In this document: positions 15,001-33,321 of the stretch, in pieces
Layout of the letters: every line of letters begins with the position of its first letter
Position numbering within the stretch: position 1 is the first letter of the stretch
Source: a virus
Length of the DNA: 64,000 nucleotides
Virus record (IMG/VR): IMGVR_UViG_3300025853_000048
Span: 25,450 to 89,449 of that record
Direction: 5' to 3' (one strand)
The notes under the pieces: generated by a model
What the model was told of the DNA's origin: nothing
What the model saw: only the letters and a program-made list of their open reading frames with translations
Databases searched by the model: none
Program-made: the position numbers and the translations under genes

Positions 15001-18000
15001 TCCACAACCGCCTTTTTGCCTTCGATGTCGTCCTCTGCCTTGCCCTGGTATTCCTGCAAGAGTTTATCGATCTCTGCTTCTGCGTCCCGGGAACCGTAAG
15101 AAGCAATATCGCCAACCAGTCTTTGCGCGGCTTCGATTTCCTCCTGCTGGATAAATTCATCGGGTTCCACATACTCATTGATCCGGTCAAACACATCTCC
15201 CGGGTCGCCCGACAATTCGCTTTTAAGCTGCTCTCCGGAAAGCATGGCCTGCTTGACCATTTCAGCAATGCTTCTTGCTCGCTCATTGATTTGTTGTTCA
15301 CGAATTTGCGGAGCATCCCCGATGATGCTGCTAATCCCGGACAATCCAGCAGCCCCGGAACCAATGGCACCACCAATCCCGGCACCCATCCATACCCCGT
15401 CGATGACTTGATCCCAATTAACTCTTCCGTCATCCATGAATCCCTGGATGGCCTCTTCTTTTCCTTCATCAAAGCCTTCCTCGATTATTTCAGGGAAACC
15501 ATGCTTGGCGAATCCTTCGGCTGCTGAATCCCAAAACTCCGGTGACCGAACATAGTTAAGAAATTTGGCATCCACATCCGGGTTGTTTTTCGCCCATTTG
15601 GCAAATGCTGGCATATCCAAGTCGCCAGCCTTGCGCTTGAATTTATTCAGGACGGCCAGTTCACCAGTCGCTCCAAATGCGCCAACAATGGCCGATGAAG
15701 TCAACCCTTGTACTACTCCAACCCCAACCGCATGATCCAGCGCATCCGCGTGGGACATCCCTTTTTCAATGCCCTGCTTGTAGCTTCGACTCACGGCAAT
15801 ACCGAAACTTGCCGATCCCGCTTCACCCATTGCTGTCGCAAAACCAGACCTGGCTGCCCATTTCGAAACTTGTTTCTCAATCTGTTCTTCGGCGGCATCT
15901 TTGCCTATCTTCTTGGTCAGTTCGCTGCCTATCTTTTTCTTGAGTACTTTTTTCCCAACGGAACTTACCGCTGTGGCTGCACCCAATGAAAAAATCATGG
16001 AGGGGAGTTCTGAAAACACTTCTGAGACAAATTCGTTGGCCACTTGTGATACACCACCTCCGATTGCCCCTGACTGGACAAGTGCAGAAAATTCTTCACT
16101 TGTTTCGTTTGCTCCCGTTAACCACTCCTCTTTGCCTGTGATACCCCCGGCAACCCCTCTCAGGATCATTTCGAATTCGCCCACAGCACTGCCAGCAGCA
16201 GCGAGAACCCATTGGATGGCTTTCTCTGAAAGGTTCTGCTGATCCAGGTAGGCTTCAATCAATTCTGCCTCGCTCTCGTGCGGGTTATTCTGCTCGAATT
16301 TAAGGAAACCTGTCAACCCTATGGGAACATCTGTGTTGACGCCCCGTACGGAGATTTTGCGTAAAGCTTCTGCCACCTTGGGTGCTGAAATGTTTCGAGC
16401 GTGTTCAAATTCTGCCTTTGCTTGCTCTATCTTCTCAGGGTCATCAGTAAGCTTGGATAACTCGGCATCTAGGGCAGGGGTATCGAAAAGGTTTAACGAT
16501 CCCACATTTAGTTGCAAATTTCCCGATTGCAGTTCCCGGACCTTCTGCCCCGGCAACCATCCGGAATGCCTTTCTTGCAAATCGCGAACGATGCGATCTT
16601 TCTGAGTTCTGGGGATGTTGTATTTCTCAGCTAGTTCTTCCGCGTGCTTGATCCGCAGTTCGTGCCGTTTACGGGCTTTTTCCTGCTCTTTCTCATCATC
16701 CCGGGGTTTAAAGTTATCAACCAGTGCTTTTGCCGTCCGCTTGACTTCCTCCTGCCAGTCTTTAGCTTCCTTTTGGTCGTAATTGCCTTCCGTTTCTCTA
16801 AATTTCTTGTAGAGATCCTTGGTGAAATCCTGCTGGTTGGAGATTGATTTTTGGAATCTTTCCCAATCTTTCTTGCTGGAAAGCTTACGCCGCTCATCCA
16901 GTTTTGATTGCTCGGCTTTGGTTTGCTTGTCAAACTTGGTTAGCTTTTCGTTTGCCTGCTTCTGTCTTGCCTTGAGCTCTTCCTGCTTCTGGAGTTGGAA
17001 ATCGCGAATCATCGCGTTCTTTTTATCCAGGTCTGCCTGATCTGTGGCTTTGCCTAAAGAATCGGCAAATTCGGAGACTTCCTTTTTTGCTTCGGCCCCG
17101 AAAGCTTCCAACTCCTCGTTGACTGTTTTCAGCATAGCTTCCCGCTTGCTGTTCCGACCAAGGGCGAATTCGTTAATATTCTTCAGGTTCTCATCCTGCT
17201 GAATATACATTTCCCGCAAATCGTCAGCCAGGTTGCTGGATAAAGGATCTTTTCTCAGATTGGCAATCGCCTTGTCTCGTTGCTCCTCAACCTGATCAAT
17301 TTTGAGTTGTTCTTTGGTCTTCGATCTACGCTCATTTTGCGCCTTGATCTCGCCTTTCTCCCGCTCGAGTCTCGCTTTGTTGCGCTCGATCTGGGCAGTT
17401 ACTTTCTGCCGCTTCGCCGCCAGTTGTGCATTTTCAGCATCCAGTTGTGCCGCCGATCTGCGCTTGACAGCAGTTTCACGCTCCTCTTTTTCCAGTGCCG
17501 CCAACTCAGCCTCCGCAGCTTCGTTTACTGCTGCCTCCCGCTCTCGCAAGTCGGCCATCCTGGCGGCAGTTTCAGCCCTTCCCGCTTTCTCTATTTCCTT
17601 GCGGTCGGTTTCGGTTGTGGCGCCATCCCGGCGAGTACGGAAAATATCGTCCTCAATCTCCCAGGCTTCTCCCTTTAGTTTCTGGTAACTGGGCTTTAAT
17701 TTACGATACGCTTCCAGCTTTTCCTTTAGTCGGATGACATCCGGGGTGTATTCCTCAGGAGTCCACTCGCCATAGCCTTCATCTTGCCATTCCGCTTCGG
17801 AGTTTTCGTGATCATCCTCATCGTAGACAACCCCAAACTCATTGTACCCGAGTCGTTCAAGTTTGGTCGCCACTTCATCCTTGCGTAGGCGCAACTCCTC
17901 CAACGACGCCTTGCTGGCTTCCTCGGCCTTTTTCCGCTGCTCTTCCTGGGCTTTTTCTGCCTCTAGTTTCTTCCATTCCTTGTCAGTATGTAACCACCTG

Positions 18001-18473
18001 GAGACTCCATCCACGTCCTTATAGGTTTCGCGCCCGATCTTCTTTGCCTTGCGCTCAAATTCAATGTTGTAGTGGTCTTTCTCGCGCTTCGCCTTTGCTT
18101 TGGCTTCATCTTCTGCAGCTTTGCGTTTGGCTTCCTCTGCCTTTGTTTTAGCCGCCTGTTTTGACGCCTGTTCGCGCTTCTTGTCTTCCTGCTGCTTGTA
18201 CCATAGCGAATCATCTGCTGCGTCCTGGCGCTGTTCTCGCGCTATCTCATCCTGGTAACCGCTCCTGACAAATGAGTTTTGCAGGTCGGAATAGCGAAAC
18301 GGCATCCCGGAGGCTGCTTTGCCGCTCGGTCTGGTCGTAGAGTTTCCGAACAGGGGTTTATGCCCCGTCGTGGATGCTGGTTGGATCGGCTCGGTATCAG
18401 GTTGAGATTGCTGATCAAATTTGTCGTCATTGATCAGTCGTTTCTTCGGCTTGTCGTCGTAGTCGTTGCCCAT
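1..18473 (-). CDS. Giant polyvalent protein (>6,157 aa, 3' end beyond window); probable virion-injected/ejection protein
   Basis: ATG at 18473 (MGNDYDDKPKKRLINDD...). The same frame is still open at position 3 (...PDKQREQDRKRKDQNSNKT). The track lists no long minus ORF here, consistent with no in-frame stop. Coiled-coil N-terminus followed by many polyvalent-protein domains. Confidence 0.93.
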   Translation of the reverse strand, partial: MGNDYDDKPKKRLINDDKFDQQSQPDTEPIQPASTTGHKPLFGNSTTRPSGKAASGMPFRYSDLQNSFVRSGYQDEIAREQRQDAADDSLWYKQQEDKKREQASKQAAKTKAEEAKRKAAEDEAKAKAKREKDHYNIEFERKAKKIGRETYKDVDGVSRWLHTDKEWKKLEAEKAQEEQRKKAEEASKASLEELRLRKDEVATKLERLGYNEFGVVYDEDDHENSEAEWQDEGYGEWTPEEYTPDVIRLKEKLEAYRKLKPSYQKLKGEAWEIEDDIFRTRRDGATTETDRKEIEKAGRAETAARMADLREREAAVNEAAEAELAALEKEERETAVKRRSAAQLDAENAQLAAKRQKVTAQIERNKARLEREKGEIKAQNERRSKTKEQLKIDQVEEQRDKAIANLRKDPLSSNLADDLREMYIQQDENLKNINEFALGRNSKREAMLKTVNEELEAFGAEAKKEVSEFADSLGKATDQADLDKKNAMIRDFQLQKQEELKARQKQANEKLTKFDKQTKAEQSKLDERRKLSSKKDWERFQKSISNQQDFTKDLYKKFRETEGNYDQKEAKDWQEEVKRTAKALVDNFKPRDDEKEQEKARKRHELRIKHAEELAEKYNIPRTQKDRIVRDLQERHSGWLPGQKVRELQSGNLQLNVGSLNLFDTPALDAELSKLTDDPEKIEQAKAEFEHARNISAPKVAEALRKISVRGVNTDVPIGLTGFLKFEQNNPHESEAELIEAYLDQQNLSEKAIQWVLAAAGSAVGEFEMILRGVAGGITGKEEWLTGANETSEEFSALVQSGAIGGGVSQVANEFVSEVFSELPSMIFSLGAATAVSSVGKKVLKKKIGSELTKKIGKDAAEEQIEKQVSKWAARSGFATAMGEAGSASFGIAVSRSYKQGIEKGMSHADALDHAVGVGVVQGLTSSAIVGAFGATGELAVLNKFKRKAGDLDMPAFAKWAKNNPDVDAKFLNYVRSPEFWDSAAEGFAKHGFPEIIEEGFDEGKEEAIQGFMDDGRVNWDQVIDGVWMGAGIGGAIGSGAAGLSGISSIIGDAPQIREQQINERARSIAEMVKQAMLSGEQLKSELSGDPGDVFDRINEYVEPDEFIQQEEIEAAQRLVGDIASYGSRDAEAEIDKLLQEYQGKAEDDIEGKKAVVERIEEIEADRLTQIRQSVKMAAGFSAEIEGAINAAKDAATEAKQAEEADPEGNAGAYKRAMANYIATLQAAAAVRIGADNKAVNLDHPALKSPVGHLNSPVYEIVDSPEGPVPVITEEAHDQAKAIFPEAAEAFLTMDYETAKAKFSAPAEQEVEAEPETDPKSTEEEEKTVADSTLEQDADDANSSIASPEEVSTGGESLSSDGGGDYWSVSSLTGDQTFTVPTSIASSSKEALRKVAPQIPGDETINPYDYDITLVRADQVAAPAKKKPKAKKPKTPAPQKDETLSSIKKINRAIGNQSAMLDTLKASGVRVIVAQNKAHGEALLGRSLSRKGTGVTVTDSDGNPAIVIFEDQNKRRSVAQIERTIFHEGVHAAQRVFAADNPELIDAASKAFDPRSPQYDKVLHGLMLKEYNGFDGLTPAKKVSEATRAIIEGKFNGRTSSPHFRRYLKKFLNWIYNNLDENPALRELTDGIESVIKPKRKEPTERKRPKQKQAYPKPKGNKVPDPLPEKRDYIVPNDQGTDDLAVAIDEIPPTYQKKAEKVAEVIELEVAKYGERAFPGGIVYGPIEEIQQVGLEEVASGTAMSVRKLPNGDVALKVDLGWLARSGYSQERIAVLLSEELIHQAALEELSIREAKELWRALPEDIKREVERSYFISRLKGVPKQYREDALEAVEIIDQEVARSESLDISDEFIDQVAKGTPEIITYLKQYLGHEPVDRFSSLKKGDFLGAHEFHRMIIQDKEFAGRVTEIEGIEYMMPVIIRWLKQVAQNLSRMITEIKDPETKAMAIDQRKRIVKRLNQMRQAAGPDLDAKTPSLAENIEIHAAKGAKPKFPKGISSASMFDALLNLAGDTDRPAGKRYLSFLTNTTKERPEAYARLNEAGEYEITEAGQKVVDEWKGEESGSKAPSTKKPKSKQVPITPETFAKNITFLQESFDGKADDDQLFDAYKRNYSTHLVGNRQDFQRRLDEMRNPEVVEEAQVDDKTAEFRTAVANAKAKMREMDKSKTVPKAVMKSMRASFNSLIKTVFADEAKGITGRSINHIDASTAEVQRKFFIQLQTAYRHAENDETRELINEMFRDAGFIEIGAEGEVVSADPGLHAGESNVVRGEKVRVIRPGWNMHDGVGEFQPMKAIVEPVEAATTAGKKGVVAETVPPTTTGIAKASSQAESSYTPPRNLGKKEVSDQDKRETARKKLQEQAGGKTPQTADLNDPKSVNAAVREMVTFLETGDRENDAALGMVTAHFLNNVASLKPNRQKAVFQRLKRMTDKKEGVLTQYAGETAAIPEVMQDTLETAKAMAAAGKSAKEIRAVTGWFPGRYDGKMRWEIPDKGASFKDGVSDSATVYNVVDSRGNEVSGYDDQAGADAEVTKLNKLDSGYTVRPVQSDYTRATFVSDILDHPELYEAYPDVGNVDLIITIGPDVKDEGGEFQPYENRESEGLFDLQPQITVRAKNKEDALSTLIHEIQHWIQEEEGFAKGGNFQNNIRNYKETVDDLNRYVMYLNEEMSLASKEGNKERYDYLMGERSEYVARIQEIEGPDGIGAAEKGFADYQRTAGEIEARDTQGRLTYDAKVRALVEPYDIENIAKEEAIILFSKDEHGDPQGFYDRSQNLIGLIQGKANESTIMHEVAHMSRELLKGTDLGSELNAAYGIATDEWTDDQEEVFARHVERYMRDGDFPDGLPDRLKAALAKVAEVIRGIYAQLAGSPIHNDIPAEVRKVLDEIMLLGEEKATAPEPKPDLEVQPGMTGRERAELLEPQLPEDPDMEWIATSGLKHGSRTITKIGWNPVTGAMRVVYESDRNQTYSYVNIPPTLMQNLRQKQANRNEAIERRNAILAELDPTTRAKAEDTLKGVEKSIWDSVKNLPIIAEAKAKLDSIMDKMANLFRRNKTSPEELKRQAKNNIKALEEEYHHQISKPDLVGRLHKALDFLPEDMRQQLIIEEVAIIQSNSIGSYFYDAVSRTDAYYDENWMNQRKAAGRDFQPDIEGMPAREAEVLIDYLSSLDATPRDKGAIEDALKKQRPGEKASQLTYLLDMIDQGYVPTDEKGKTRLALPGESKQIAQAKRNLNKAPAALAEYLTGGKQAAPTPKPKTDANPDDFASGDLDLDTLSKPKRKKAKAKDASSTAGTITDTLSKKKFTPKQQQEYERISAGLTELSRKLGLAKTDDEINALTDLAGALIAGAQKLRKEAGLSEAEFSIEALAQVPDKVRKARGRDTLKQVDEERDREYLAAVEAGDLNTVERLIDEAAKEAGYNIGPAYHGTSHAENIEVFNDFSYFTDDWWNADGYASGERVYDVYLKMETPLVIDAKGEKWDELSSEHGSSTQDVVRNFDDTKYDGIIFEDIGDSWMDDAEAGSSTVYVTTNPNQIKSADPVTYDKDGEVIPLSQRFDSDKDSILYQFAGENAEVPQFMADSLETAKAMAAAGRDSETIRAATGWFPGKYDGKMRWEIPDEGAKIYDEVLDLLKNGDTEEVELRDLLDHTALFEAYPEIGKIPVSLKDGIDAVYINIGGKERISIGAQGRGLSSLLHEIQHAIQHREGFARGSSPLEHRQGMQMADEDFDRLNKEVSRKFMVTKYFESAEENGTTPVEELRKRHELRIKHAEELAEKYKRRSAAQLDAENAQLAAKKYSRLADREIDPRELELTEMMSDIDEAREWYQHEKEKYEKEREKRIFAPDRDYRRTAGEIEARDVQSRANLTAEQRAAIAPYSSENIAPEDAILLQRGGKGRAIKGFYRRADNLIGLIEGKADAITLLHEIIHLDRELLKGTEIGNRLNEFYGEATDDWSPESEEKFAEHAEEYFRRGKFPQGASDKIKEAFRVVKEIARNLYAHLKGELPNEIRDIFDEIIIAGSGDHMERRSVNDIKAGNSKEYVAERDKARAATTRERQKKAKSEDQQRAERHAEAIERDKQEAPRRKKLAGLRRKYAKAKTSEMKLELIEQAEQAGFSKSDIDDNYDPSQGTYSVVDKDLDELRQKFKPINVYTGLLKGKDDEVLQRLVHEGEESLDEADKQYLIDEGFAVYEGGETQESFPTENGIADYPNRPAVDAEIAKVATRLSDNPGSMVSLGELVPIVMDQGFSKREVEDGLYRIYQRGEGNLTLHDQQSYISDSEREFALKLGVDDMHLFAIGRRAKKPSDKELRQYEEFHRKVDGRNIPMGPATNEEPGTKNEERGSLLPLDWQGKPLAQDPQDTTEKTVDIRHAEELKKWINGEDLSPEEYDQLLDLRILVVDMGDADTPSQLQRSKEGEADGLMINPALEKFILGDRSQETMEVVSNELKLLKTGYSIHAAKTGKSERPDGLNAAQVRAMMAIGEGKKGHPGSAKVLANNGIIYKKKFEKDGTQELTAEGRKKFEAQKRALEGEPPKAETRKPKAKKKVAEEKPDTLTKSKRTTDSAGNTKLIAWDKHSQSDEQWKRGVEYAEKQLPEWKNTARTTGVGSHYVEGLNRDLDKVNSMLNMVREKVRNFSSSANVRPNKNLFFWVGVKDYLDNVESKLLADISAESERYNALPVESQRIEDAVQFWEEKERRDGKSYQDKINEIKGETGKDFEDAEEKRLGEGAAIFAKSAPGKKLELWSDNPRKALPKSASEVAHRKRLGDLFSITSRYNELKTDKAKSELLKKTGGWLSIYEVEAAIESYKDRLVNITGVDLSEDSKRHPGPHPGVTKYPNVGEVIYYDPTGSSIFRSVEVTNDLGNGIFSGTIVEPGPKELIGQIVEMDLSEVAVQTPKKKTAAKKTDPIALAEQAIETYAGSLKLQKEAGRIADLSHQEASKDEGLKGAFFSRVAEVMFALRRTQVGDVVSVRNDKDRVIEELLGYSEASIGKEGVEAQDFISKVFMVDKGQKREADWDDVNAPNKLAPITEEQVQRLEEFAQTKSKKTAKAGKHPGNTGVFDLDESVFEEEGSIKLSEDGFRASIRDEKDVEVGYVTAGEYEGKVRIHKSTLQGIHQGKKLGIKAYQAIIDKAHEDGKDVMSDNYVSEPAYRVYEALSRRGYDVDLSNAQKGTKSGRTVYTPINYKKPAVTVRKPNTGQKSPADGAKSPDVADIDGTISTGTPNGAKATFRYRVVDATDLDGMIEAEINADQTRQRSGNRSSMEQIERIASSIDPDFLLDSRKANDGAPVVSGGSVIAGNGRSSGIRLAYERGNAMAYETAVRDFAQEEGINLAGVKQPVLIREVIEFTSGDQRSFVVESNPKQGGLGESVSEQALLDAEAIGYSTLSGLRFNVNNQLTADSLRAVATKLEQSARGITRTQSGEFDQAEASRRVMAAFVTRLVEKAGKDSADVTAILESDGGKRIVSAVAKVAPELAKLDDDLSLAGDVVEAILSLRSGMHAVEQGNFRNLSDWLTNRKAELVSEPLSEIGQLLLDDLVTSTKLKKDRSSNEFPFDETLREYLTFAQREQKNRDDASQTEDIFNDERQDQSPETYFAKINRIAGFPETGAAEKTLAESTKEGEEGELSQQSPFQKLSDDFDAIEAEIKIAVSRSKAITNEQRKEARKKLVTLSKQMLTKTVPDAIRELETLGTEEAAKLEEELFLNAAELTASAVGLIPGPVGMVADAIGTGIDIKQRDPVGALLGIASAFELDLIAKPVKFKRGLEAMSETIKALKSMKTSLDSVENVKTIVAATRKDKTNQTEINDNADMFQVAGVEEDFSLVGEQTVETEFEAPDTRTDAEKDAEVGQEQLFDEKPKTKKQIFEDRKKALDAAFLSGRQKFLDAVTTDEQRQEEIDIIQNETKRQSGLIAKSDIDLDLAVAVVETYGEKGWDTPLFVLGLKNTPRNKQYWTAGVQRVSEPYDKGEYFEEIGFDPTQSIQSQVGLPESAGKTMWVDLKRQRGREGFGLKWGKTEMVEIKGMPQNARIAEPNNSFWEAWRTDKAGMKSQGYHVRKENGEWQVLDTSVTENISVKDAVGRDIPAVDYFKDGRKRVYEVRERKGSKFVNVLIGSIGDNPTTEWVPMLPNAEIEVFKPGMTPDKQREQDRKRKDQNSNKT
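2080..2820 (-). other. ddrB-like ParB domain within giant protein
   Basis: ATFRYRVVDATDL...QTRQR...MEQIERIASSIDPDFLLDSRKANDGAPVV...VIAGNGR...PVLIREV matches the ddrB-ParB motif pattern. Confidence 0.8.
2990..3240 (-). other. GNAT-like acetyltransferase domain within giant protein
   Basis: VGYVTAGEYEGKVRIHKSTLQGIHQGKKLGIKAYQAIIDKAHEDG...SD..VSEPAYRVYEAL resembles the GNAT acetyl-CoA-binding loop and C-terminal helix. Confidence 0.6.
7098..7205. repeat. 108-bp fusion of two exact repeats (copies of 17412-17466 and 16618-16673)
   Basis: 7098-7152 is identical to 17412-17466 (55 bp) and 7150-7205 is identical to 16618-16673 (56 bp). The two overlap at TTG and are in the same reading frame. Confidence 0.9.
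7340..7780 (-). other. LPD23 + HEIQH metallopeptidase-like module (copy 2) within giant protein
   Basis: AATGWFPGKYDGKMRWEIPDEG ... LLHEIQHAIQHREGFARG. Confidence 0.8.
7790..8300 (-). other. ADP-ribosyltransferase (ART-PolyVal) domain within giant protein
   Basis: AYHGT...FSYFTDD...YA...VYDVYLKMETP...YDGIIF...NPNQIKSADPVTYDKDGEVIPLSQRF. Confidence 0.75.
10540..11160 (-). other. LPD23 + HEIQH metallopeptidase-like module (copy 1) within giant protein
   Basis: AVTGWFPGRYDGKMRWEIPDKG...LDHPELYEAYPD...TLIHEIQHWIQEEEGFAKG. Confidence 0.8.
11580..11800 (-). other. GrpE-like beta domain within giant protein
   Basis: GFIEIGAEGEVVSADPGLHAGESNVVRGEKVRVIRPGW...MKAIVE resembles the GrpE C-terminal GE.FDP..H...V...G pattern. 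Confidence 0.5.
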
Positions 18474-22063: not shown

Positions 22064-22411
22064 TTATTTCACCTGGTAAAAGAAAACTCCCTCCCGGGAA
22101 TCAAGATTGATTTCGCCGATGAACACCATGTTTTGAAGCAGGGTGATCCACCATTCCAGGGATCGTTTGCGGTTTCGATAGAACTTGTTGAACTCAGTGG
22201 CGGTTTTCTCTCTGTGGAAATATTGCTTTAATTCTGCTACCTCTTCCGAGAAGGCCTTGATTTCCTTGCGGATCTCCTTCTTGCGTCGGGATATGCTTAG
22301 CTCTGCTGTTGAGTTCTTCATGATTGTGGTGGTTTTTGTCTTGACTGGGTGGGTTGCGGTTCTGTTAAAATGATGTTGGAGCGCGAGGTCGCCGAGGGCT
22401 CCCCGGCTCAA
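22064..22411 (-). CDS. Hypothetical protein (likely start ATG at 22321)
   Basis: ORF from track; the N-terminal TTG extension lies in an att-like region. Confidence 0.6.
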   Translation of the reverse strand: MSRGALGDLALQHHFNRTATHPVKTKTTTIMKNSTAELSISRRKKEIRKEIKAFSEEVAELKQYFHREKTATEFNKFYRNRKRSLEWWITLLQNMVFIGEINLDSREGVFFYQVK

Positions 22412-22428
22412 CTAATTACTGTTCTCCT
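22404..22428 (+). mobile_element. Left boundary of first cassette (GTTCTCCT core; attI/attG-like site or decayed attC right arm)
   Basis: GTTCTCCT at 22421-22428 is the exact reverse complement of R'' AGGAGAAC (23228-23235). No matching left arm is visible. Confidence 0.65.
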
Positions 22429-23290
22429 GAGATAACTGCTCCTTAAGTTCCATCAGTTCATCAATGATTTCATCCTGGCGCCAAGGGTCAATTTTTTCCC
22501 ATTCCATTTTCGTGTCCAAGTCCTCTCTACCACAGGAATCCACGCGCATCATGCAGTTCAGAATCTCTGCCGCCACCTGCGGCACTATCGCGTTTCCGAG
22601 TCCTCTAAGTCGGTCCAATGCTCGGGGTACCCCATCAAAATCTCGACAGAAACAGGATCCCATTTCAATTTGGCGTATTCCGTTCCCCTCAATTTGTTTT
22701 GGCTCCCACCTGCTTCCTGGACTGTTCCGTTCCATTTTTCGCTTCCCGCGCACGGCGTGGGCAAGAATCCAGACTCTATCTCTCCGATGTTGCGCCCCGA
22801 TGGCACAAGCCGGAATAATGATTGCCTGCGCGGAGTAGCCAATCCCCTCCAAGTCAGAAAGCACTTCATCGAGGCCCATCGTGATGTGACCAGCAACATT
22901 TTCACACAATGCCCAACGGGGTCGGAGGTGTCCAAGAATTCGCAATAGTTCCGGCCAGAGGTGACGGTCATCTTCCGCGCCTCTTCGCTTCCCGGCGCTA
23001 CTGAAAGGTTGGCAAGGGTATCCTCCGGTAATAAGCTCAATTGTTCCATAGTTATCAGGGTCTAAAGTTTTTACGTTGTCGTGGATTGGTACGCCGGGGA
23101 AGTTCTTCGCCAGCACCTTTTGCGCCCATGGGTCTACCTCGCAGAACCCCACGGTTTCGATTCCTCCGACCATGCGAGCTGCCAGGGCGAAACCACCGAT
23201 ACCGGAGAACAGGTCGAGATGCCGCAAAGGAGAACAAGACGCAGCAGGTAATGCTTCATCCCGTTGGTCTGTTCGCATACCTGTGCTCAT
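22412..23290 (-). CDS. C5-cytosine DNA methyltransferase, alpha (large) subunit; cassette gene
   Basis: Motif I DLFSGIGG, motif IV GYPCQPFS, motif VI ENV, motif VIII RDRVW, motif X LGNAIVP. Motif IX is absent from this frame. Confidence 0.92.
   Translation of the reverse strand: MSTGMRTDQRDEALPAASCSPLRHLDLFSGIGGFALAARMVGGIETVGFCEVDPWAQKVLAKNFPGVPIHDNVKTLDPDNYGTIELITGGYPCQPFSSAGKRRGAEDDRHLWPELLRILGHLRPRWALCENVAGHITMGLDEVLSDLEGIGYSAQAIIIPACAIGAQHRRDRVWILAHAVRGKRKMERNSPGSRWEPKQIEGNGIRQIEMGSCFCRDFDGVPRALDRLRGLGNAIVPQVAAEILNCMMRVDSCGREDLDTKMEWEKIDPWRQDEIIDELMELKEQLSQENSN
22585..23049 (-). CDS. Overlapping alternative-frame beta subunit of the C5 MTase (M.EcoHK31I-type)
   Basis: Fully nested in the MTase gene. 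Carries LPTP and motif-IX-like WDPVSVEILMGYPEHWT. Confidence 0.75.
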   Translation of the reverse strand: MEQLSLLPEDTLANLSVAPGSEEARKMTVTSGRNYCEFLDTSDPVGHCVKMLLVTSRWASMKCFLTWRGLATPRRQSLFRLVPSGRNIGEIESGFLPTPCAGSEKWNGTVQEAGGSQNKLRGTEYAKLKWDPVSVEILMGYPEHWTDLEDSETR

Positions 23291-23300
23291 ACGTTCTGCT
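23228..23300 (+). mobile_element. attC site 1
   Basis: AGGAGAAC-AAGAC-GCA(G)CAGG...CCTGTGC-TCATAC-GTTCTGCT: R'', 5-nt spacer, L'' with extra base, L', 6-nt spacer, R'. Confidence 0.9.
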
Positions 23301-23496
23301 AGTAAATCCCCATCATCATCTCATCCTCTCCTCCAGCACTTTCCACGAAGGAAATAGGGGCATTAGGATTCCACTTTTCCGCTTTCTCTTGCTCTGATCC
23401 ATCCGTCTTCCCAGACGTTGGCGATGATATTTTCGGCGTCTCCTTCTCCGAGTCCGTATTCGAGGAGGATGTTTCTGATTCTGTGGTAGTATTCAT
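23299..23496 (-). CDS. Small acidic ORF overlapping 23363-23698, ending at attC1 R'
   Basis: 65-aa ORF; TAG abuts the cassette boundary. May be spurious. Confidence 0.3.
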   Translation of the reverse strand: MNTTTESETSSSNTDSEKETPKISSPTSGKTDGSEQEKAEKWNPNAPISFVESAGGEDEMMMGIY

Positions 23497-23698
23497 TGTC
23501 TGTAAATCCGAGCCAGTCGCGACCCCAAGGGGATCCTGTGCAATCTGTTCCCGAGAAGTCTATCTTGATATTGATGTCCACAACCCCGTCAGCAGAACAA
23601 GACGCATCAGCCAATGACTGTTCTTTAGGTTTTTTATCGTCTGATTCCGTTGGTTTATCGTTTTGATCACTCATCGTTTTTTGTGGTTGCGCCGTCAT
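23363..23698 (-). CDS. Hypothetical protein; cassette gene
   Basis: Start codon lies inside attC2 and the frame reads through R'' as ...ASCSA. Confidence 0.65.
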   Translation of the reverse strand: MTAQPQKTMSDQNDKPTESDDKKPKEQSLADASCSADGVVDINIKIDFSGTDCTGSPWGRDWLGFTDNEYYHRIRNILLEYGLGEGDAENIIANVWEDGWIRARESGKVES

Positions 23699-23720
23699 GG
23701 CTGTGCTTCAGCGTTCTCTC
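23591..23720 (+). mobile_element. attC site 2
   Basis: AGCAGAAC-AAGAC-GCA(T)CAGC-CAATGAC...GTCATG-GCTGTGC-TTCAGC-GTTCTCTC. Confidence 0.9.
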
Positions 23721-23721
23721 T

Positions 23722-24546
23722 TTAAAATAACTCCGGTTGAGGTGGGGCGTGGTGCTCGGCTTTCGGCTCCGAGAAGTCGAGGACTTCCTGAAGCATCCTT
23801 TGGGCTGCTATCTCGCAGTATTTCTCCTGCATCTCGACCCCCACGCATTTAACCCCGGCATCTTTACAGGCTCTTAACGTGGTCCCTGATCCCATCCACG
23901 GATCGAGAGCAGTTTTTACATCTCCCGCCTGTTGGAGTGCCCACACCATTACGTCCAGAGGTTTCTGGGTTGGATGGTCCCGCTTTTCCGATCCTTTTCG
24001 AGCCATTCCATTCCACAGATGTTTTTTTATTCGCATCGCTCCATTGAGATTGTTCCACGCCATCTCACCATCAGCGAAGTTTCCATTCATTTCCTTATCC
24101 CAGACTAGCGGCCCTTTGCACGGCGGCAGATCGTAGTAATTCCCCCCGAATATGATTTGTTTTTCGCAGATATTCCGCGCCAGTTCCATTACCCATCTTG
24201 GGACTGGTTCTTTATCCCAGTCGGTCAGTTCGTAGGTTCGCTTCGCAACTCTCCGATGTCCGCTCCCTACTATATTCCCGCTTGCTTTGTGCATCGCTTT
24301 ATCGGCTCCGATACCATAAGGTGGATCACACAGAAGCAGATCAAACCTCCCTAGATGCGGCATTATCTTCCCACAGTCGCCGTGATAGATCGTCACATAA
24401 TCGTCCTGGTAGTAGGGACTGTACAGTGTACAGTCATCCGCTGTACACTGTACAGTCGGCTCGTCTGGAGAGAACAAGACGGTGGAGCCAATGCTATCCT
24501 CTATGTCGTTTTTCGTGGTTTTCATCGTCGTTCGTTCGGATCGCAT
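23722..24546 (-). CDS. Amino (N6-adenine/N4-cytosine) DNA methyltransferase, beta class; cassette gene
   Basis: IYHGDC, DPPY, HPTQKP, LDPWMGSGTT motifs. Confidence 0.92.
   Translation of the reverse strand: MRSERTTMKTTKNDIEDSIGSTVLFSPDEPTVQCTADDCTLYSPYYQDDYVTIYHGDCGKIMPHLGRFDLLLCDPPYGIGADKAMHKASGNIVGSGHRRVAKRTYELTDWDKEPVPRWVMELARNICEKQIIFGGNYYDLPPCKGPLVWDKEMNGNFADGEMAWNNLNGAMRIKKHLWNGMARKGSEKRDHPTQKPLDVMVWALQQAGDVKTALDPWMGSGTTLRACKDAGVKCVGVEMQEKYCEIAAQRMLQEVLDFSEPKAEHHAPPQPELF
24417..24457. repeat. Perfect 17-bp inverted repeat containing four TGTACA sites
   Basis: GACTGTACAGTGTACAG-TCATCCG-CTGTACACTGTACAGTC. Confidence 0.9.
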
Positions 24547-24568
24547 GGCTCACCTTTAGCGTTCTAAT
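24468..24568 (+). mobile_element. attC site 3
   Basis: GAGAGAAC-AAGAC-GGT(G)GAGC-CAATGC...GCATG-GCTCACC-TTTAGC-GTTCTAAT. Confidence 0.9.
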
Positions 24569-25746: not shown

Positions 25747-26040
25747 TCATTTTCGGCCCTCTTCAGCAACCCGGACTGCGTTGCGGACCAGGCTGGTGAA
25801 TATTGACAACTGGGTCTTGGGGGGTGCGCTCCTGTGTCCCCGTTCCCGTGCCATGTGGAAATAGCCGCAGAATTCGCATTTGTAGACAATCAGCGGGGTT
25901 CCGGATTTCTTCTCTGATTGCGCTTTAGCGGTCAGTGCGAGTTTGCGCCTTTTGTAAGCGTGCTTGCCGCATTTTCGGGGTAGTTTGGCGACCTTTTCGT
26001 GTGCTCTGCGTTGCCTAGGTTTCTGTGTTCTTTTGCTCAT
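25747..26040 (-). CDS. Zn-finger protein (CGK...Y.C..C..FH)
   Basis: CGKHAY...VYKCEFCGYFHM. Confidence 0.7.
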   Translation of the reverse strand: MSKRTQKPRQRRAHEKVAKLPRKCGKHAYKRRKLALTAKAQSEKKSGTPLIVYKCEFCGYFHMARERGHRSAPPKTQLSIFTSLVRNAVRVAEEGRK

Positions 26041-27082
26041 CTTTTTCGCTCAATACGTTGGTTTCAAAAGCCCCGCTCATATTGGTGTGGTTGTAGGTCT
26101 GGTTCGTTATATCCAAACCGCTATGCCCTAGTTTGTAACTGATCTCCTCCAGCGTCATGCCTTTCTGATAGGCGTGCGTGGCGACCGAGTGACGCAACAT
26201 GTGCGGTGTGCATTTCGGCAACTGGTGTGCCTTGCAAAGTTTGTTCAGAAAATCATTTACCCAGTGCCGGGAGTAGCCCACCCATTGCCCATGTACCTTG
26301 TGCGAGAAGATCGGTTCAGTCTCATCGTCGCGGCCTTTGTCCTGGATGTGCTTTTCGATCCTGACAGCGATCCTGTACGGGATCTCCACTCTGCGTGTCT
26401 TCTTGCCCTTGGTGTTCTCTGATCGAAAAATGAAATAATGCTGCCCTGTGGCACCGTCTCTGCGGAAGTCCTGCGCCTGGAGTGATATGAATTCCGTTAC
26501 CCTGGCACCAACTGAGTAGAGCGTGTAGAACGCCAACCATCGGATCTGATCGGCTGTTCCTGCCGTGCCTTTGTCCTTGCGTTCTTCGAGCACGTCCAGC
26601 CATCGCTCCACCTCCGGTTCACTCAGAACCTTGTCTTCGATGATTCTATCGGGCCGCTGCAGTTCGATTTCAACTCCGACGTTATACTGTAGATAACCCA
26701 GTCTTTGCGCGTATGACATCAGGGATTTAATCGGATCAATGCGAGTGCGGATCGATGCGGGTTTGAGCGTCTGTCCGTTGGGTAACGTTTCCGCTTTGAC
26801 CTGATCGACGTATTCAGTCATGTCTGCCAGGGTGACGGTTCGTAATGGTTTTTCCCAGCCGATAAAATCTCGGAACTTGCGGATATTGAGCGCGTAAGTC
26901 TCCTGCGTGTTCTCCGATGGACGGGAGCGGATAAACATTTCGATTAGGTGATCGTCGTCCCGAGCTCCGGACATATCCGGTTTCGGCTGGTGCGGGTGGT
27001 CGATCGGGGTGCCGACTGCATACTGCTTCCGCTCTGCGATGTCGCCAGGTTCGGGGTCCAGGATTTCGAATTCTTCAGGCAT
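26015..27082 (-). CDS. Tyrosine recombinase (XerC/D-like, SAM-like N-domain); not an integron integrase
   Basis: GARVTE, TKGKK, HMLRHS, LGH, TNQTY catalytic set. Start trimmed to MPEEF. Confidence 0.9.
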   Translation of the reverse strand: MPEEFEILDPEPGDIAERKQYAVGTPIDHPHQPKPDMSGARDDDHLIEMFIRSRPSENTQETYALNIRKFRDFIGWEKPLRTVTLADMTEYVDQVKAETLPNGQTLKPASIRTRIDPIKSLMSYAQRLGYLQYNVGVEIELQRPDRIIEDKVLSEPEVERWLDVLEERKDKGTAGTADQIRWLAFYTLYSVGARVTEFISLQAQDFRRDGATGQHYFIFRSENTKGKKTRRVEIPYRIAVRIEKHIQDKGRDDETEPIFSHKVHGQWVGYSRHWVNDFLNKLCKAHQLPKCTPHMLRHSVATHAYQKGMTLEEISYKLGHSGLDITNQTYNHTNMSGAFETNVLSEKDEQKNTET

Positions 27083-27083
27083 T

Positions 27084-27476
27084 TTAAACTCTCTGCAATT
27101 CACCGGATAAAACATCGTGTTCAATACACGGATCAATAATTTCCCAGCCCAGTTCTCTTAAATCGTCCTGGACATCACACATTTCCGACCACGCTTCTTT
27201 TGGGTCTAGCTCGTAAGCATAGTCATATCGGAACCAGGGGCGACCACCTGATTCCCCGATCGTCACGTTGGAGCGAACGCTGATCAGTTCGGATAGGGAT
27301 TTCGGAGGGGGTTTCAGATCGCACATATTAAGAGCCTTGGAAATATTCTCGCCAATCTCTGCCAACTCCTTGGCGCGATCCTGATTGCCTTCTCTTGCCT
27401 CTTTATGACACCTGTGGACGATTTCGCGCAACAATTGCCCTACAGTTATCTCACTTAACAAATCTTCTTTATTCAT
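27084..27476 (-). CDS. Hypothetical protein
   Basis: 130-aa coupled ORF. Confidence 0.7.
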   Translation of the reverse strand: MNKEDLLSEITVGQLLREIVHRCHKEAREGNQDRAKELAEIGENISKALNMCDLKPPPKSLSELISVRSNVTIGESGGRPWFRYDYAYELDPKEAWSEMCDVQDDLRELGWEIIDPCIEHDVLSGELQRV

Positions 27477-28606: not shown

Positions 28607-28715
28607 ATCTGCGAAGCCTTTCTATATCTTCTTTCTCATCTTTGTTAATGTTCTCTAATCTTATATACACCCATAATTACCAAACTCAACATAAGTCGGG
28701 TTTTGTTAAGTTTTT

Positions 28716-29110: not shown

Positions 29111-29911
29111 TTAATTTTCTAACGCTTTTCGGTCGAGCAGGTCGTGCATCTCTTGCTTCATTTCCACTTCGCTAACCATCGTCCAACCCTTCCAGCTACC
29201 TCTGGAGTCTTTTTGGTGCAGTGAACAAAGCCCGTTAGAAGCTCGGCACCGACCCGTTTTCTCGGGATGTGTCCAAACCATATCTTCGGGCTGGAAAAGG
29301 TGTTCGTGAGTCCTGACGAATTCGCTGATGTTTACAACTTTATAAACCACGTTTTCGGGCGACCTTAGATAGCACCGCTTCGACCTCTTGTTTTGTGGCC
29401 CCTTTGCTACTACGGGAGCCACCTGTGGTCTACCTCTCATTTTTTCCGCCCCTCGTTCGTATGATTCGTCATCGCGGAACTTGTTTCCCTTCATGAACTG
29501 CGAATGAGCTTCGTTCTGCTCTTTTGAGTGCTTCCGCCCCCTATGTGCTTCGCTGATCTTTTTAGCTTTTATAGCCGCTCCTTCGGGAGTTATTTTCCAC
29601 CGTCCTTCCGCATGTGCTAGTTTGACAGACTTGCTCATCTTGTCGCGCATCTCCTGGGGTTTTTCCTTCCCTTTCCACGGCTGATAATGACCTTTGCAAT
29701 ATCTCGCTGTCTTAGCGATCGATTTTATGCGCTCGCCACAACCACAAGCGCATAAAGGTTTTTCTTTTTTTCGCGCCCTTTGCCGATAGGCAGCAGCGTT
29801 GCATTTTGTTGAGCAGTATTTCTGCGCTTTGTATGGAACGAAAGGAGTTCCGCAAATTAAACATTCTTTTTTGCTTTCCATATTCTCTTTAACTTTTCTA
29901 TAGTTCAACAC
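29111..29911 (-). CDS. NUMOD3-like/Zn-finger DNA-binding protein (homing-endonuclease-associated modules)
   Basis: CxxC...YCSxxC, CACGCG, KISEAHRGRKHSKE (NUMOD3-like), C-terminal KGWT. Confidence 0.65.
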   Translation of the reverse strand: MLNYRKVKENMESKKECLICGTPFVPYKAQKYCSTKCNAAAYRQRARKKEKPLCACGCGERIKSIAKTARYCKGHYQPWKGKEKPQEMRDKMSKSVKLAHAEGRWKITPEGAAIKAKKISEAHRGRKHSKEQNEAHSQFMKGNKFRDDESYERGAEKMRGRPQVAPVVAKGPQNKRSKRCYLRSPENVVYKVVNISEFVRTHEHLFQPEDMVWTHPEKTGRCRASNGLCSLHQKDSRGSWKGWTMVSEVEMKQEMHDLLDRKALEN

Positions 29912-29929
29912 AAGTCTGCTTTTGTTAAG

Positions 29930-30709
29930 TTATTCGCCTGGTTTCCCGTGCGAGTCTGCCTCTGCCATACAGAACAGTCCGCATTGAATATTCGGGTCAG
30001 ACCCTTTAGGTTCTCCCTCTTCTATTTCGTCCAGGAAGATTGATGCTCGATCTCCATTCTTGGTGACTCGGTTAATTGTTATATTGAGCTCCCTTTCCAG
30101 TTTGGCCGTTCGCTCGAATTGCTCCGGAAAGTGTTTACGAACTCGCTTCCAGTAATCTATAGAATCGCGGGCCTTAACGCACCCGATGCAGTTATTATTG
30201 CGGAACCCCAGTTTATACATCTCTGGCAGTTCGATCCCCACCCGATCCAGCATCCCGAAGCAATCTTCTTTGGTTAGGCACCGATCAATCAAAGGGCACT
30301 CGATAATCCTTTCGTTGTTGTCTCGTTGCCATCTTTTCAGTCGCCGGGATTCATCGGCTGTATAGCCAAAGATTTCCGTGTCCCCTAACTGCCAGACCTT
30401 ATCACCTGGTTTTTTCTTCAGTTCCCCGGTGCATGGTGCGCCGTGATGGGATACCAGAAATTTGCGTGCTTCAAATACTTCATAAATATTGTCGAACTTT
30501 TCGCTTTTCAGGATTCTGACCGGCTGGCCAAACCACTTCTCACAATCAACAATAAACCGCTTGTTGTCTGGATGTTCGCTGCCAGTGTCGCAATACACCA
30601 CCTCCACCTTGCTATACTTCTCAATAGCGATTTTCGTGGCTACAGCAGAAGCTGCTCCGCAACTAAAATGGGAGACTACACGTCCTGATGGTTTTACTTG
30701 TTGGTTCAT
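29930..30709 (-). CDS. PAPS-reductase-family (PP-loop, Cys cluster) protein
   Basis: FSCGAASA, DTGSEH, PCTGELKK, GYTADE..R, NNCIGC. Confidence 0.8.
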   Translation of the reverse strand: MNQQVKPSGRVVSHFSCGAASAVATKIAIEKYSKVEVVYCDTGSEHPDNKRFIVDCEKWFGQPVRILKSEKFDNIYEVFEARKFLVSHHGAPCTGELKKKPGDKVWQLGDTEIFGYTADESRRLKRWQRDNNERIIECPLIDRCLTKEDCFGMLDRVGIELPEMYKLGFRNNNCIGCVKARDSIDYWKRVRKHFPEQFERTAKLERELNITINRVTKNGDRASIFLDEIEEGEPKGSDPNIQCGLFCMAEADSHGKPGE

Positions 30710-30898
30710 TTAGATAGCTTTTAGAATCGCTTTCCCTCCAATCACCCCTAGAGCTATTGCAGCAATATGACTTAGTGGCTCAGATAACGGCAATGCCCAG
30801 ATTATTAGTGCGCCGATCACGATATTAATTAGGGCATTGGATAATTTGTTGCTCATAAAAAATTTAACAAAATTACTTGTGTTGAGTATCGCTATCAC
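30710..30898 (-). CDS. Small two-TM membrane protein
   Basis: Two hydrophobic segments. Confidence 0.55.
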   Translation of the reverse strand: MIAILNTSNFVKFFMSNKLSNALINIVIGALIIWALPLSEPLSHIAAIALGVIGGKAILKAI

Positions 30899-32860: not shown

Positions 32861-32883
32861 TTTATAAGTCTACAAAATTGGAC

Positions 32884-33321
32884 TTATGTTGAGTTTTTTG
32901 GAGGATGTATTTTGCTTCCTCCGAAAGTGGTGGGGTTTGTCCATTCTAAATGATCGTCAACTTCCGGGGTGAACGCCAGGTAAGTCGCCACACCTCCTTC
33001 CGTTGCCCGGTCAGTTTTGATTTGCACTTTCCATAGTTGCTTCTCGATCTCCACAAACCTTAATCGATTGACAGAATCCATCTCTCGCACGGTTGGTTTT
33101 TCTAAAACATGAATAAAGCGCTTCCCTGATGATAATGAAATAACATGGAAGCCGGTTTTCTCGCTCCTGGTGAACGCAGCCGTCAGGATCAACTCGTCAT
33201 CGCGCCTGGTTTGATCTTCGGTCATCCTCGGTGTTACTTTTGCTTTTAAACTCTCCACACCACCAACCTTTTTGTACTTCGGGAAAATCGTCATCTCGAT
33301 GCCCTTCGACAATGCCTCCAC
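32884..33321 (-). CDS. Hypothetical protein
   Basis: 145-aa ORF. Confidence 0.55.
   Translation of the reverse strand: MEALSKGIEMTIFPKYKKVGGVESLKAKVTPRMTEDQTRRDDELILTAAFTRSEKTGFHVISLSSGKRFIHVLEKPTVREMDSVNRLRFVEIEKQLWKVQIKTDRATEGGVATYLAFTPEVDDHLEWTNPTTFGGSKIHPPKNST

Follow-up and report, generated by a model that had tools for sequence, protein, structure and literature searches.

Bacteria use integrons to stockpile and exchange genes, above all those for antibiotic resistance. The presence of a row of attC-like sites in a freshwater phage raises the question of whether these sites delimit gene cassettes that can still be moved and, if so, how such cassettes might be recombined and read. The array under study (array 1) comprises three cassettes and three attC sites within a 64,000-nt stretch of DNA, which was analyzed as a whole (the window); the virus record from which this stretch is taken, IMGVR_UViG_3300025853_000048, measures 89 kb and contains a second array beyond the window. 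Both are CALINs by definition: each has two or more consecutive attC sites, and the record encodes no integron integrase. Judging from the sequences compared here, array 1 is probably one of two integrase-less integron platforms of this phage, carrying movable and reversed cassettes. Sequence comparison shows each platform to consist of a conserved anchor ending in G/TT, followed by gene cassettes that each end in an attC hairpin. Site-specific recombination inside the GTT of R' excises and inserts the cassettes, with new ones presumably entering at the anchor, and the cassette genes would be read only by transcription that comes in at the end distal to the anchor and proceeds toward it, that is, by phage read-through. 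The methyltransferases encoded in the cassettes may protect phage DNA from restriction. Evidence counted against this explanation includes the lack of an integrase, the absence of the anchor from species genomes, nonconsensus R boxes and an antisense promoter-like element.

All attC sites of array 1 were located on the plus strand and all cassette genes on the minus strand. Cassette 1 (22422-23293, 872 nt) encodes a C5 cytosine DNA methyltransferase (ORF 22412-23290; PF00145, 4.9e-40; phrog_363, 6.1e-75; TIGR00675) with its start codon within attC1 (23228-23300). Cassette 2 (23294-23713, 420 nt) encodes a 111-aa protein (ORF 23363-23698) that starts within attC2 (23591-23720); no Pfam, PHROG or NCBIfam family and no usable Atlas match were obtained for this protein, and its Atlas model was of low confidence, while in two metagenome contigs (L034 and L036) the anchor is followed immediately by a cassette for an 87%-identical protein. 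Cassette 3 (23714-24561, 848 nt) encodes an N6/N4 DNA methyltransferase bearing the motif DPPY (ORF 23722-24546; PF01555, 1.2e-14; phrog_67, 1.7e-37), starting within attC3 (24468-24568). This three-cassette layout had been proposed in an earlier note on the same DNA and was retained, but the C5 methyltransferase frame overruns the left cassette edge by 10 nt and stops in the anchor. The three attC-architecture sites described in that note were recovered with all their elements in place, as were the orientation of the genes antisense to attC and the DNA methyltransferase cargo, C5 and N6/N4; the placement of the array in a phage early operon is conjectural, as is the proposal that phage promoters drive the genes, and the second array abuts the portal gene. 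The conserved anchor, the second array, the inward promoter-like element and a nearby Xer-like recombinase were absent from that finding.

The grammar of the array 1 sites was read directly, each site consisting of xxxAGAAC, AAGAC, an 8-nt L'', a loop, a 7-nt L', 6 nt and GTTCTxxx, where L'' minus one base is the exact complement of L'. The 11-mer AGAACAAGACG occurs three times in the window, solely at the three attC sites. When the 89-kb genome was scanned mechanically for the grammar alone, eight matches were returned, six of which correspond to the two arrays; 20 shuffles gave 1.65 on average and 4 at most. The same grammar was found in all 21 aligned sites (73 to 130 nt, with a terminal structure of variable length), AAC and GTT being invariant and the spacers measuring 5 and 6 nt. 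The L stem was 96.8% paired over its 12 pairs, with compensatory, both-side changes in 10 of them; these values were reached by none of 500 shuffles, and slid controls were 30-41% paired. Two columns of alignment A3, 17 and 24, are unpaired; with numbering based on a 7-nt R'' they are positions 16 and 23, column 24 being an invariant A (bottom-strand T) and position 16 carrying C or A, not G, on the bottom strand. Extrahelical bases at positions 16 and 23 are described for attCaadA7 in passages of PMC5027507. In bottom-strand folding, a check put forward in the earlier note, the z-scores ranged from -0.35 to -4.0, single-site energies being weak and mostly within the shuffle range, and one of six sites fell beyond all shuffles. 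The structural support for the attC sites is comparative rather than thermodynamic.

A covariance model (R1) trained on phage sites alone scored attC1 (a training member) at 68.3 bits, attC2 at 79.0 and attC3 at 82.4. In a search of 50 kb with filters off, R1 returned the canonical aadA1 attC of plasmid R100 at 35.5 bits (E 3e-8) as the only match with E < 0.1; at default filters this match was lost. No further sites were found in the window with R1 at E values up to 1, filters off. The R boxes of array 1 (GGAGAAC, GCAGAAC and AGAGAAC with GTTCTGC, GTTCTCT and GTTCTAA, or RRRGAAC and GTTCTSY) do not match the consensus RYYYAAC / GTTRRRY, and the only relatives to fit it were L035 (GTTAGGC) and L034 (GTTAGAA).

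Evidence of movement came from the way in which the ends of neighboring cassettes fit together. As the earlier note had claimed, the R'' octamers of attC1 (AGGAGAAC), attC2 (AGCAGAAC) and attC3 (GAGAGAAC) are exact complements of the GTT octamers at 22421 (GTTCTCCT), 23293 (GTTCTGCT) and 23713 (GTTCTCTC), respectively, and not of their own R'. In a comparison set of 20 cassettes in 8 arrays, R'' agreed with the GTT box one cassette leftward at 99 of 100 variable positions and with its own R' at 59 of 100; perfect octamers were observed in 19 of 20 and 2 of 20 cases, respectively. Position 4 of R' (A or C) tracks the next cassette, which places the crossover within GTT, the exact bond being beyond sequence resolution. 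The attC moves with the gene to its left, and the same gene-attC units were found in differing contexts, as in the case of a 273-aa N6/N4 methyltransferase cassette that is first in array 2 and fifth in L036 (96% amino-acid identity). A common right flank is shared by L035 and L036, which contain one and six cassettes, respectively. Seven assembled arrays differed in their contents, with seven different first cassettes behind an identical anchor, and an eighth first cassette was seen at a short-sided contig joint. Contig joints were seen in array 1 itself: in two other runs 22420 is joined to 23293, skipping exactly the 872 nt of cassette 1, and a contig from run X13 joins 22420 to 23713, skipping exactly 1292 nt, with 790 nt of cassette 3 identical; the sides of the contig joints measure 22-25 nt, below a 30-nt caution, all runs are represented by assembled contigs, and parts of the stretch with no contig cover were left out of this evidence. 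The metagenome contigs may stem from one sampling campaign. The comparison of related phages that the earlier note had called for showed cassette content changing exactly at the GTT cores, with breakpoints at GTT in every comparison. Offset complementarity, moved gene-attC units and contig joints all support its view of integron-type cassettes with breakage and joining inside the R' GTT, and the same cassettes appear in other orders, platforms and phages because they are excised and inserted there by site-specific recombination. One array, in L032, was rearranged and had a truncated attC.

Array 1 is headed by an anchor of 81 nt (22341-22421, plus strand), a putative attI-like docking element defined by homology to the head of array 2 and by identity across contigs. 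Its elements are, in order, TTGACT (22341-22346), 19 nt, TAAAAT (22366-22371), the hairpin GTTG[G]AGC...GCTCAAC (22375-22412) and 8 nt of spacer, after which it ends with the first base of GTT, the G at 22421. Over the final 65 nt the sequence is 100% identical in phage contigs that are otherwise unrelated (L008 and L013 from IMG/VR, and metagenome contigs L031-L038), which have other cassettes downstream, the anchors heading from one to six different cassettes. An anchor ending in G/TT and bearing inverted core-like boxes (GCTCAAC, 7-8 nt, GTT) heads all eight arrays. In the second array, which adjoins the portal gene, three sites were found at L001 13192-14374 and an anchor homologue at L001 12372-12457. 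The anchor gave no alignment with attI1 of R100 and is not adjacent to an integrase. No true match to its pattern was found in 185,579 bacterial and archaeal species (one genome each), and thus no host integron bearing a matching attI came to light. Matches attributed to chance were 19 of 21 viral ones to a first anchor pattern (dissimilar flanks), one in an Acidimicrobiales MAG (no flanking similarity) and those in L024-L026 (no flanking similarity, no R1 match).

The direction of the cassette genes bears on how they may be expressed. In all 20 cassettes the gene is antisense to its own attC, and in 19 the longest antisense ORF begins inside attC, so that the ribosome-binding site, the start codon and the first 20-45 codons are encoded inside the hairpin; the gene ends at the far cassette edge or a few bases from it. 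Those 19 reversed cassettes have no evident promoter of their own, and most integron cassettes are likewise promoterless, with few exceptions, according to passages of PMC5027507. An element formed by TTGAC, 18-19 nt and TAAAAT or TATAAT points into the array, the genes being antisense to it. This element may act as a promoter, judging from its motifs; a consensus promoter scan with 16-18 nt spacing did not list it, and no Pc promoter reading the cassette genes in sense was found at the array head. It is unlikely that transcription of the cassette genes ends at the anchor by intrinsic termination, since the array 2 copy has no T run and a scan lists none. Regarding cargo, DNA methyltransferases (PF00145, PF01555 or PF05063) were encoded in 10 of the 20 cassettes, and ten small cassette proteins had no assigned function.

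The enzyme that would recombine these sites was sought within the phage and beyond. In agreement with the earlier note, no match to an integron integrase at the TIGR02249 cut-off was found anywhere in the 89-kb record, nor in five other phage records that contain similar sites and include one rated 100% complete. In L034 and L036, a frame of 324 aa to the left of the anchor suggested a divergent integrase by its size and position but was rejected, having no Pfam family and being the antisense shadow of an amidase gene. An Xer-like tyrosine recombinase of 373 aa (26015-27136, minus strand; PF00589, 2.9e-20) is encoded 1.45 kb to the right of array 1. Its best NCBIfam matches were XerA, XerD and XerC (92-97 bits), and it scored 46 bits against TIGR02249, whose cut-off is 265; IntI was not among its PDB matches. 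It is a candidate recombinase only. An integron-type integrase acting in trans, from the host, as the earlier note proposed, or from a co-resident element, is another candidate source of the activity and may be given about an even chance. As for the host, no cultured phage has a terminase more than 29% identical to this one, so that no host could be named, and the DnaB helicase used as an Atlas query gave no hint; megablast and blastn searches of 50,697 phage records for cultured relatives found no match to anchor or attC, the methyltransferase core alone being matched.

A phage that recombines its folded sites and anchor autonomously, with its own Xer-like enzyme (26015-27136) instead of IntI, is an unlikely alternative. 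The gene lies close to array 1 on the same strand as the cassette genes, no cut-off-level integrase was found in this record or in the five others, and integron integrases are related to Xer, as reflected in NF040815, the best match of the 373-aa protein, whose name covers integron integrases and Xer recombinases. Elements of the CTX phage type show that an Xer-family tyrosine recombinase can act on a folded single-strand hairpin, and the present phage resembles Xer/dif integrating elements in having an Xer-like gene and dif-like sites. Its array sites, unlike those elements, follow the attC grammar and not the 11-6-11 grammar of dif, and the four dif-like sites in the phage suit an Xer enzyme better. 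Moreover, the recombinase lacks a stretch of about 45 residues present in IntI1 (alignment A4) and has two homologues in 5.8 billion proteins, in contrast to a cassette family spread across several phage backbones. No related loci were found when it was used as query in viral contigs, and in the examined parts of other anchor contigs the only recombinase seen was an Xer-like one, 21% identical and 4 kb from an anchor in L032.

It is considerably less probable that the arrays are fossils, captured once from a bacterial integron and now inert, with their differences due to ordinary homologous recombination. Homologous exchange between co-infecting phages is common, and the lack of an integrase in cis and the rearranged L032 array with its truncated attC would fit such decay, but R-box octamers remain perfect in 19 of 20 cases, the anchor is 100% identical over unrelated backbones and absent from the scanned bacterial genomes, an identical cassette 3 lies directly at the anchor in another sample, and every breakpoint falls at GTT. 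Already disfavoured, and the least probable of all, is the idea that the hairpins serve not for recombination but to control translation, or that they encode conserved leaders at the protein N termini (for example, a packaging signal), as features common to accessory genes. Every site does span the start codon and first codons of a gene, and the leaders of several proteins are similar; nevertheless, the conserved motif is translated in two different frames, which indicates conservation as DNA and not as protein, a model built from phage sites finds a canonical attC, and neither the offset complementarity nor the permutation of cassettes would be explained. Integrase-less platforms with movable reversed cassettes remain the preferred explanation.

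Several features of these platforms have counterparts in known systems. The sites share with bacterial integron attC (aadA1, In2, R100) the succession of R'', 5 nt, an 8-nt L'' with an extra base, a loop, a 7-nt L', 6 nt and R', together with unpaired bases at positions 16 and 23, and the crossover lies, as in integrons, in the GTT of R', each cassette beginning with the bases that complete the preceding R'. In contrast to bacterial integrons, the gene in the phage cassettes runs on the opposite strand with its start inside attC, the R boxes are mostly GTTCT or GTTAT instead of GTTRRRY, no IntI stands beside the array and the promoter-like element at its head points straight against the genes. 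Clusters of attC sites that carry methyltransferase genes have been described in phages before: the parts consulted of Qi, Rajabal, Ghaly, Tetu and Gillings (2023, PMC9892861) report integrase-less clusters (CALINs) in phages with five methyltransferase cassettes, the recombination of phage attCs by IntI1 in an assay, a typical same-direction layout and the counter-restriction idea for such cassettes. Those parts make no mention of ORFs that run antisense to attC, of start codons located within it or of a conserved element heading the array, and, compared with the CALINs reported there, the wild relatives analyzed here show exchange at the GTT cores. The design departs from the bacterial one in two respects for which no description was found in the literature searched: the reversal of the cassettes and the conserved, integrase-less dock heading each array. 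Beyond site prediction, these natural variants show phages shuffling DNA-modification genes between genomes with the recombination grammar of integrons, with a bearing on the possible passage of cassettes between phage and bacterial gene pools. The system offers defined attC sites, a defined anchor and named candidate recombinases, and the ten small cassette proteins are good candidates for counter-defence genes.

A broader reading, held tentatively and with the balance tilted slightly against it, is that of a 'reverse integron': an integrase-less portable dock with promoterless, back-to-front cassettes, a methyltransferase and counter-defence pool shared across unrelated phages, antisense control by the inward promoter and a non-canonical recombinase. 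If so, a bacterial Pc could not drive the cassettes, which would be expressed in phage-style read-through units alone, a separate cassette pool would circulate among unrelated phages of one habitat, the small cassette proteins would possibly serve in counter-defence, and the inward promoter of the anchor might add antisense control of the newest cassette. In sedentary chromosomal integrons a minority of cassettes is reversed, mostly toxin-antitoxin cassettes with their own promoters. The phage cassettes resemble these in having the gene antisense to attC and differ from them in that all 20 are reversed and 19 of 20 start in attC with no evident promoter. The sixth cassette of L036 resembles such a two-gene unit.

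Direct reading of the sequence bore out the layout that the earlier note had described for the three window sites (23228-23300, 23591-23720 and 24468-24568): all three read xxxAGAAC, AAGAC, an 8-nt L'', a loop, a 7-nt L', a 6-nt spacer and GTTCTxxx, and in each of them L'' becomes a perfect complement of L' once one base is taken out. Exactly three copies of the 11-mer AGAACAAGACG occur in the 64 kb, solely at these attC sites. A mechanical scan of the whole genome for the bare grammar returned eight places (mean of 20 shuffles 1.65, largest 4), six of which formed two tight arrays, namely the window array and a second one outside the window, with sites at 13192-13310, 13999-14119 and 14295-14374 of L001 (the handle giving coordinates in the same virus record). 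This second platform (L001 12372-14374) consists of an anchor, the docking element that heads each array, and three cassettes (two N6/N4 methyltransferases and an 84-aa unknown), and is directly adjoined by an SU10-type portal gene (L001 10082-12289). No further sites were detected in the window by the family covariance model with all filters off.

Structural conservation was evaluated in an alignment of 21 sites (the six of this genome plus 15 of related contigs), in which AAC, GTT and both spacer lengths were invariant. The L''/L' stem plus its extension comprised 12 pairs. Both partners had changed in ten of them, and 96.8% of cells were paired; the observed pairing values were reached by none of 500 shuffles, and pairing fell to 30-41% when the partner was slid by 1-3 columns. 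Judged by this covariation, the hairpins are under selection as structure. The two L''-arm columns that were never partnered are positions 16 and 23, counting from the 7-nt R'', where Nivina et al. (2016, PMC5027507) place the extrahelical bases of attCaadA7. Read on the bottom strand, the base was an invariant T at position 23 and C or A, not G, at position 16. Fold energies of single sites were weak evidence (bottom-strand z-scores -0.35 to -4.0, with one of six sites beating every shuffle). The R boxes of the window differ from the attC consensus in a defining feature, being GTTCTSY with RRRGAAC rather than GTTRRRY with RYYYAAC, although two relatives do have the R boxes GTTAGGC and GTTAGAA.

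In the reverse of a test with the IntegronFinder model, a covariance model trained on the 21 phage sites only (R1) was run without filters on a 50-kb part of plasmid R100 including In2 (intI1, aadA1, qacEdelta1). The aadA1 attC was its only match at E < 0.1 (35.5 bits, E 3e-8, full length, canonical orientation), the next one having an E of 0.13; with default filters the aadA1 match was lost. Direct reading showed that the aadA1 attC shares the grammar of the phage sites, and by likeness to this canonical site the latter are assigned to attC.

The offset complementarity reported in the earlier note, in which R'' pairs with the GTT octamer at the left end of its cassette, held across eight arrays and 20 cassettes. 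When each R'' was compared, at its five variable bases, with the GTT box one cassette leftward, 99 of 100 positions matched and 19 of 20 octamers were perfect, against 59 of 100 positions and two of 20 octamers for the comparison with its own R'. At its fourth position R' has A or C according to the next cassette, which places the exchange within GTT. The offset rule by itself is also compatible with a cut at R''. A cassette encoding a 273-aa N6/N4 methyltransferase, first in the second array and fifth in the metagenome contig L036 (96% amino-acid identity), keeps its own attC at both places while the gene to its right differs; the attC thus moves together with its left-hand gene, and a cut at R'' was dismissed in favour of GTT. 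The 111-aa protein encoded by the second cassette of the window has an 87%-identical counterpart, which occupies the first cassette of L036 and of another metagenome contig, L034. The right flank of L036 (six cassettes) is shared with L035, a contig with one cassette.

The stretch was present in "freshwater metagenome" runs of 2017-2018, from studies that may stem from one campaign, and contigs of four runs were mapped onto it. One joint, 22420 to 23293, omitted exactly cassette 1 (two runs, on a cassette 2 variant), and another, 22420 to 23713, omitted cassettes 1 and 2 (one run, X13) and continued with 790 nt identical to cassette 3; the anchor side of these joints is only 22-25 nt, under the tool's caution of 30 nt. 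Both in the joints and in the array comparisons, differences between related phages fell at the GTT cores, as had been anticipated. Taken together, these patterns indicate that cassettes move, with a cut within GTT. A rearranged platform was observed in contig L032 (7560-8935), where an inverted cassette adjoins an anchor copy without the promoter part, and the attC of a methyltransferase cassette is cut in its loop, the missing L'-R' half being inverted across the anchor; the arrangement resembles the outcome of an inversion that had one endpoint in the attC loop.

Both arrays of this genome start at a homologous element of ~80 nt (22341-22421 in the window), ordered as TTGACT, 19 nt, TAAAAT or TATAAT, a hairpin, 7-8 nt and GTT, the hairpin stem (GTTG[G]AGC/GCTCAAC) having one extra base and resembling an L box. 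The last 65 nt of this anchor were 100% identical in two IMG/VR contigs, L008 and L013, whose DNA likeness to this phage beyond the anchor was confined to part of the tail-fibre gene, and also in eight metagenome contigs. Seven assembled arrays with different contents carried seven different first cassettes behind the same anchor, and the short-sided X13 joint would add cassette 3 as an eighth. Within the anchor, conservation of the -35-like hexamer across three contexts with differing spacers favours a putative promoter, although this element was absent from the listing of a consensus scan at 16-18-nt spacing. If real, this promoter would fire into the array, antisense to all cassette genes. 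The anchor did not align with attI1, had no integrase adjoining it in any backbone examined (its neighbours being a 369-aa unknown, the SU10-type portal gene, an amidase and a 445-aa unknown), and had no true match among 185,579 bacterial and archaeal species, with one genome each.

The antisense orientation of genes relative to attC extended to all cassettes, a long ORF lying opposite the attC top strand in 20 of 20, with its start codon within attC in 19. The exception was the sixth cassette of L036 (7164-7702), whose ORFs of 47 and 91 aa start outside attC and matched no Pfam family, a layout that recalls the toxin-antitoxin cassettes of chromosomal integrons. ORFs ended 0-69 nt inside the left edge of the cassette or up to 10 nt past it, and in five cassettes the stop was the TAA provided by the R-box TTA. 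Cassettes 1 and 2 share a reading frame through the conserved stretch CGTCTTGTTCT, whereas cassette 3 uses a different one; its conservation is therefore at the DNA and not at the protein level.

The methyltransferase cargo noted earlier was likewise found beyond the window, with C5, N6/N4 or MT-A70 domains in half of the cassettes (10/20). No Pfam family was found in six scanned proteins of the ten remaining cassettes; the scan left out the 106-aa protein of L008, both L034 proteins and the first L036 protein, two of which share ~87% identity with the 111-aa protein that had been scanned. At the DNA level, a 303-nt core of the C5 methyltransferase gene (22747-23049) has 77% identity with methyltransferase genes from phages of Paenibacillus larvae. 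Just left of the attC3 R'', an inverted 15-mer pair (CTGTACAGTGTACAG, 7 nt, CTGTACACTGTACAG; 24419-24455) lies inside the N-terminal coding part of the cassette 3 methyltransferase, with none expected by chance. The same 15-mer occurs in cassettes of L035, L036 and two further metagenome contigs (L032, L033), at the opposite cassette end in L036, and might serve as an operator or as clustered methylation targets.

A pattern scan combined with R1 retrieved five further IMG/VR phage records with like sites (L057, L062, L094, L096 and L118), with one to three sites each (23-41 bits, site GC 0.49-0.69). In L057 and L118, N6/N4 methyltransferase genes are antisense to the site, the ORF starting inside the site in the former and 5 nt past the end of the model match in the latter. 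Passages of Qi et al. (2023, PMC9892861) describe 17 CALINs in phages with five methyltransferase cassettes, propose that such cassettes counter restriction, and report recombination of phage attCs by IntI1 (section 3.4); antisense ORFs, starts inside attC and a conserved heading element are not mentioned in these passages. A literature search of titles and abstracts gave no other paper on such phage cassettes. Clusters of attC sites with methyltransferase cargo were already known from phages; the system here is described as one of integrase-less, anchor-headed, reversed cassettes shared by freshwater phages.

Two tyrosine recombinases are encoded in the record, and neither reached the integron-integrase model, in agreement with the absence of an integron integrase stated previously. 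The first (26015-27136) is Xer-like: the whole protein scored 46 bits against a cut-off of 265, compared with 92-97 bits for the XerA, XerD and XerC models, its best solved relatives, none of them an IntI, were XerC-like and XerD, and it lacks a stretch of ~45 residues present in the IntI1 of R100 in a recombinase alignment. Only two homologues were found in 5.8 billion proteins. The second (391 aa; 56163-57338, minus strand; PF00589, 2.8e-07), possibly the lysogeny integrase of the phage, had no match to the model at E up to 0.01 or 1. None of the five further records, one of them rated 100% complete, had an integron integrase over the cut-off. The virus record, of which the window covers bases 25450-89449, is linear, 89,449 bases long, with an estimated CheckV completeness of 86%, and comparison with L013 and the metagenome contig L038 placed both of its ends within a single tail-fibre-like gene; the record therefore probably represents an almost closed circle, and an integrase is unlikely to lie in the part that is missing. 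Since no integron integrase over the cut-off was found in the phage records, action of such an enzyme in trans is plausible. The observations of the earlier note stood, and its interpretation was supported in part: cassette exchange at the GTT cores was borne out, and a host integrase acting in trans to swap anti-restriction modules is a candidate explanation.

The record also carries genes for a large terminase, a DnaB helicase, a replication initiator, an exonuclease and an amidase, nearly all genes being on the minus strand. On this strand, a single open reading frame exceeding 6,157 codons (3-18473) extends past the left edge of the window. Four dif-like sites (ACTTAACAAAA, 5-6 nt, CTTRTGTTGAGT) were located at gene junctions, two on the minus strand (28684-28711 and 29903-29930) and two on the plus strand (30862-30887 and 32867-32894), and may be targets of the phage Xer-like recombinase or of host XerCD.
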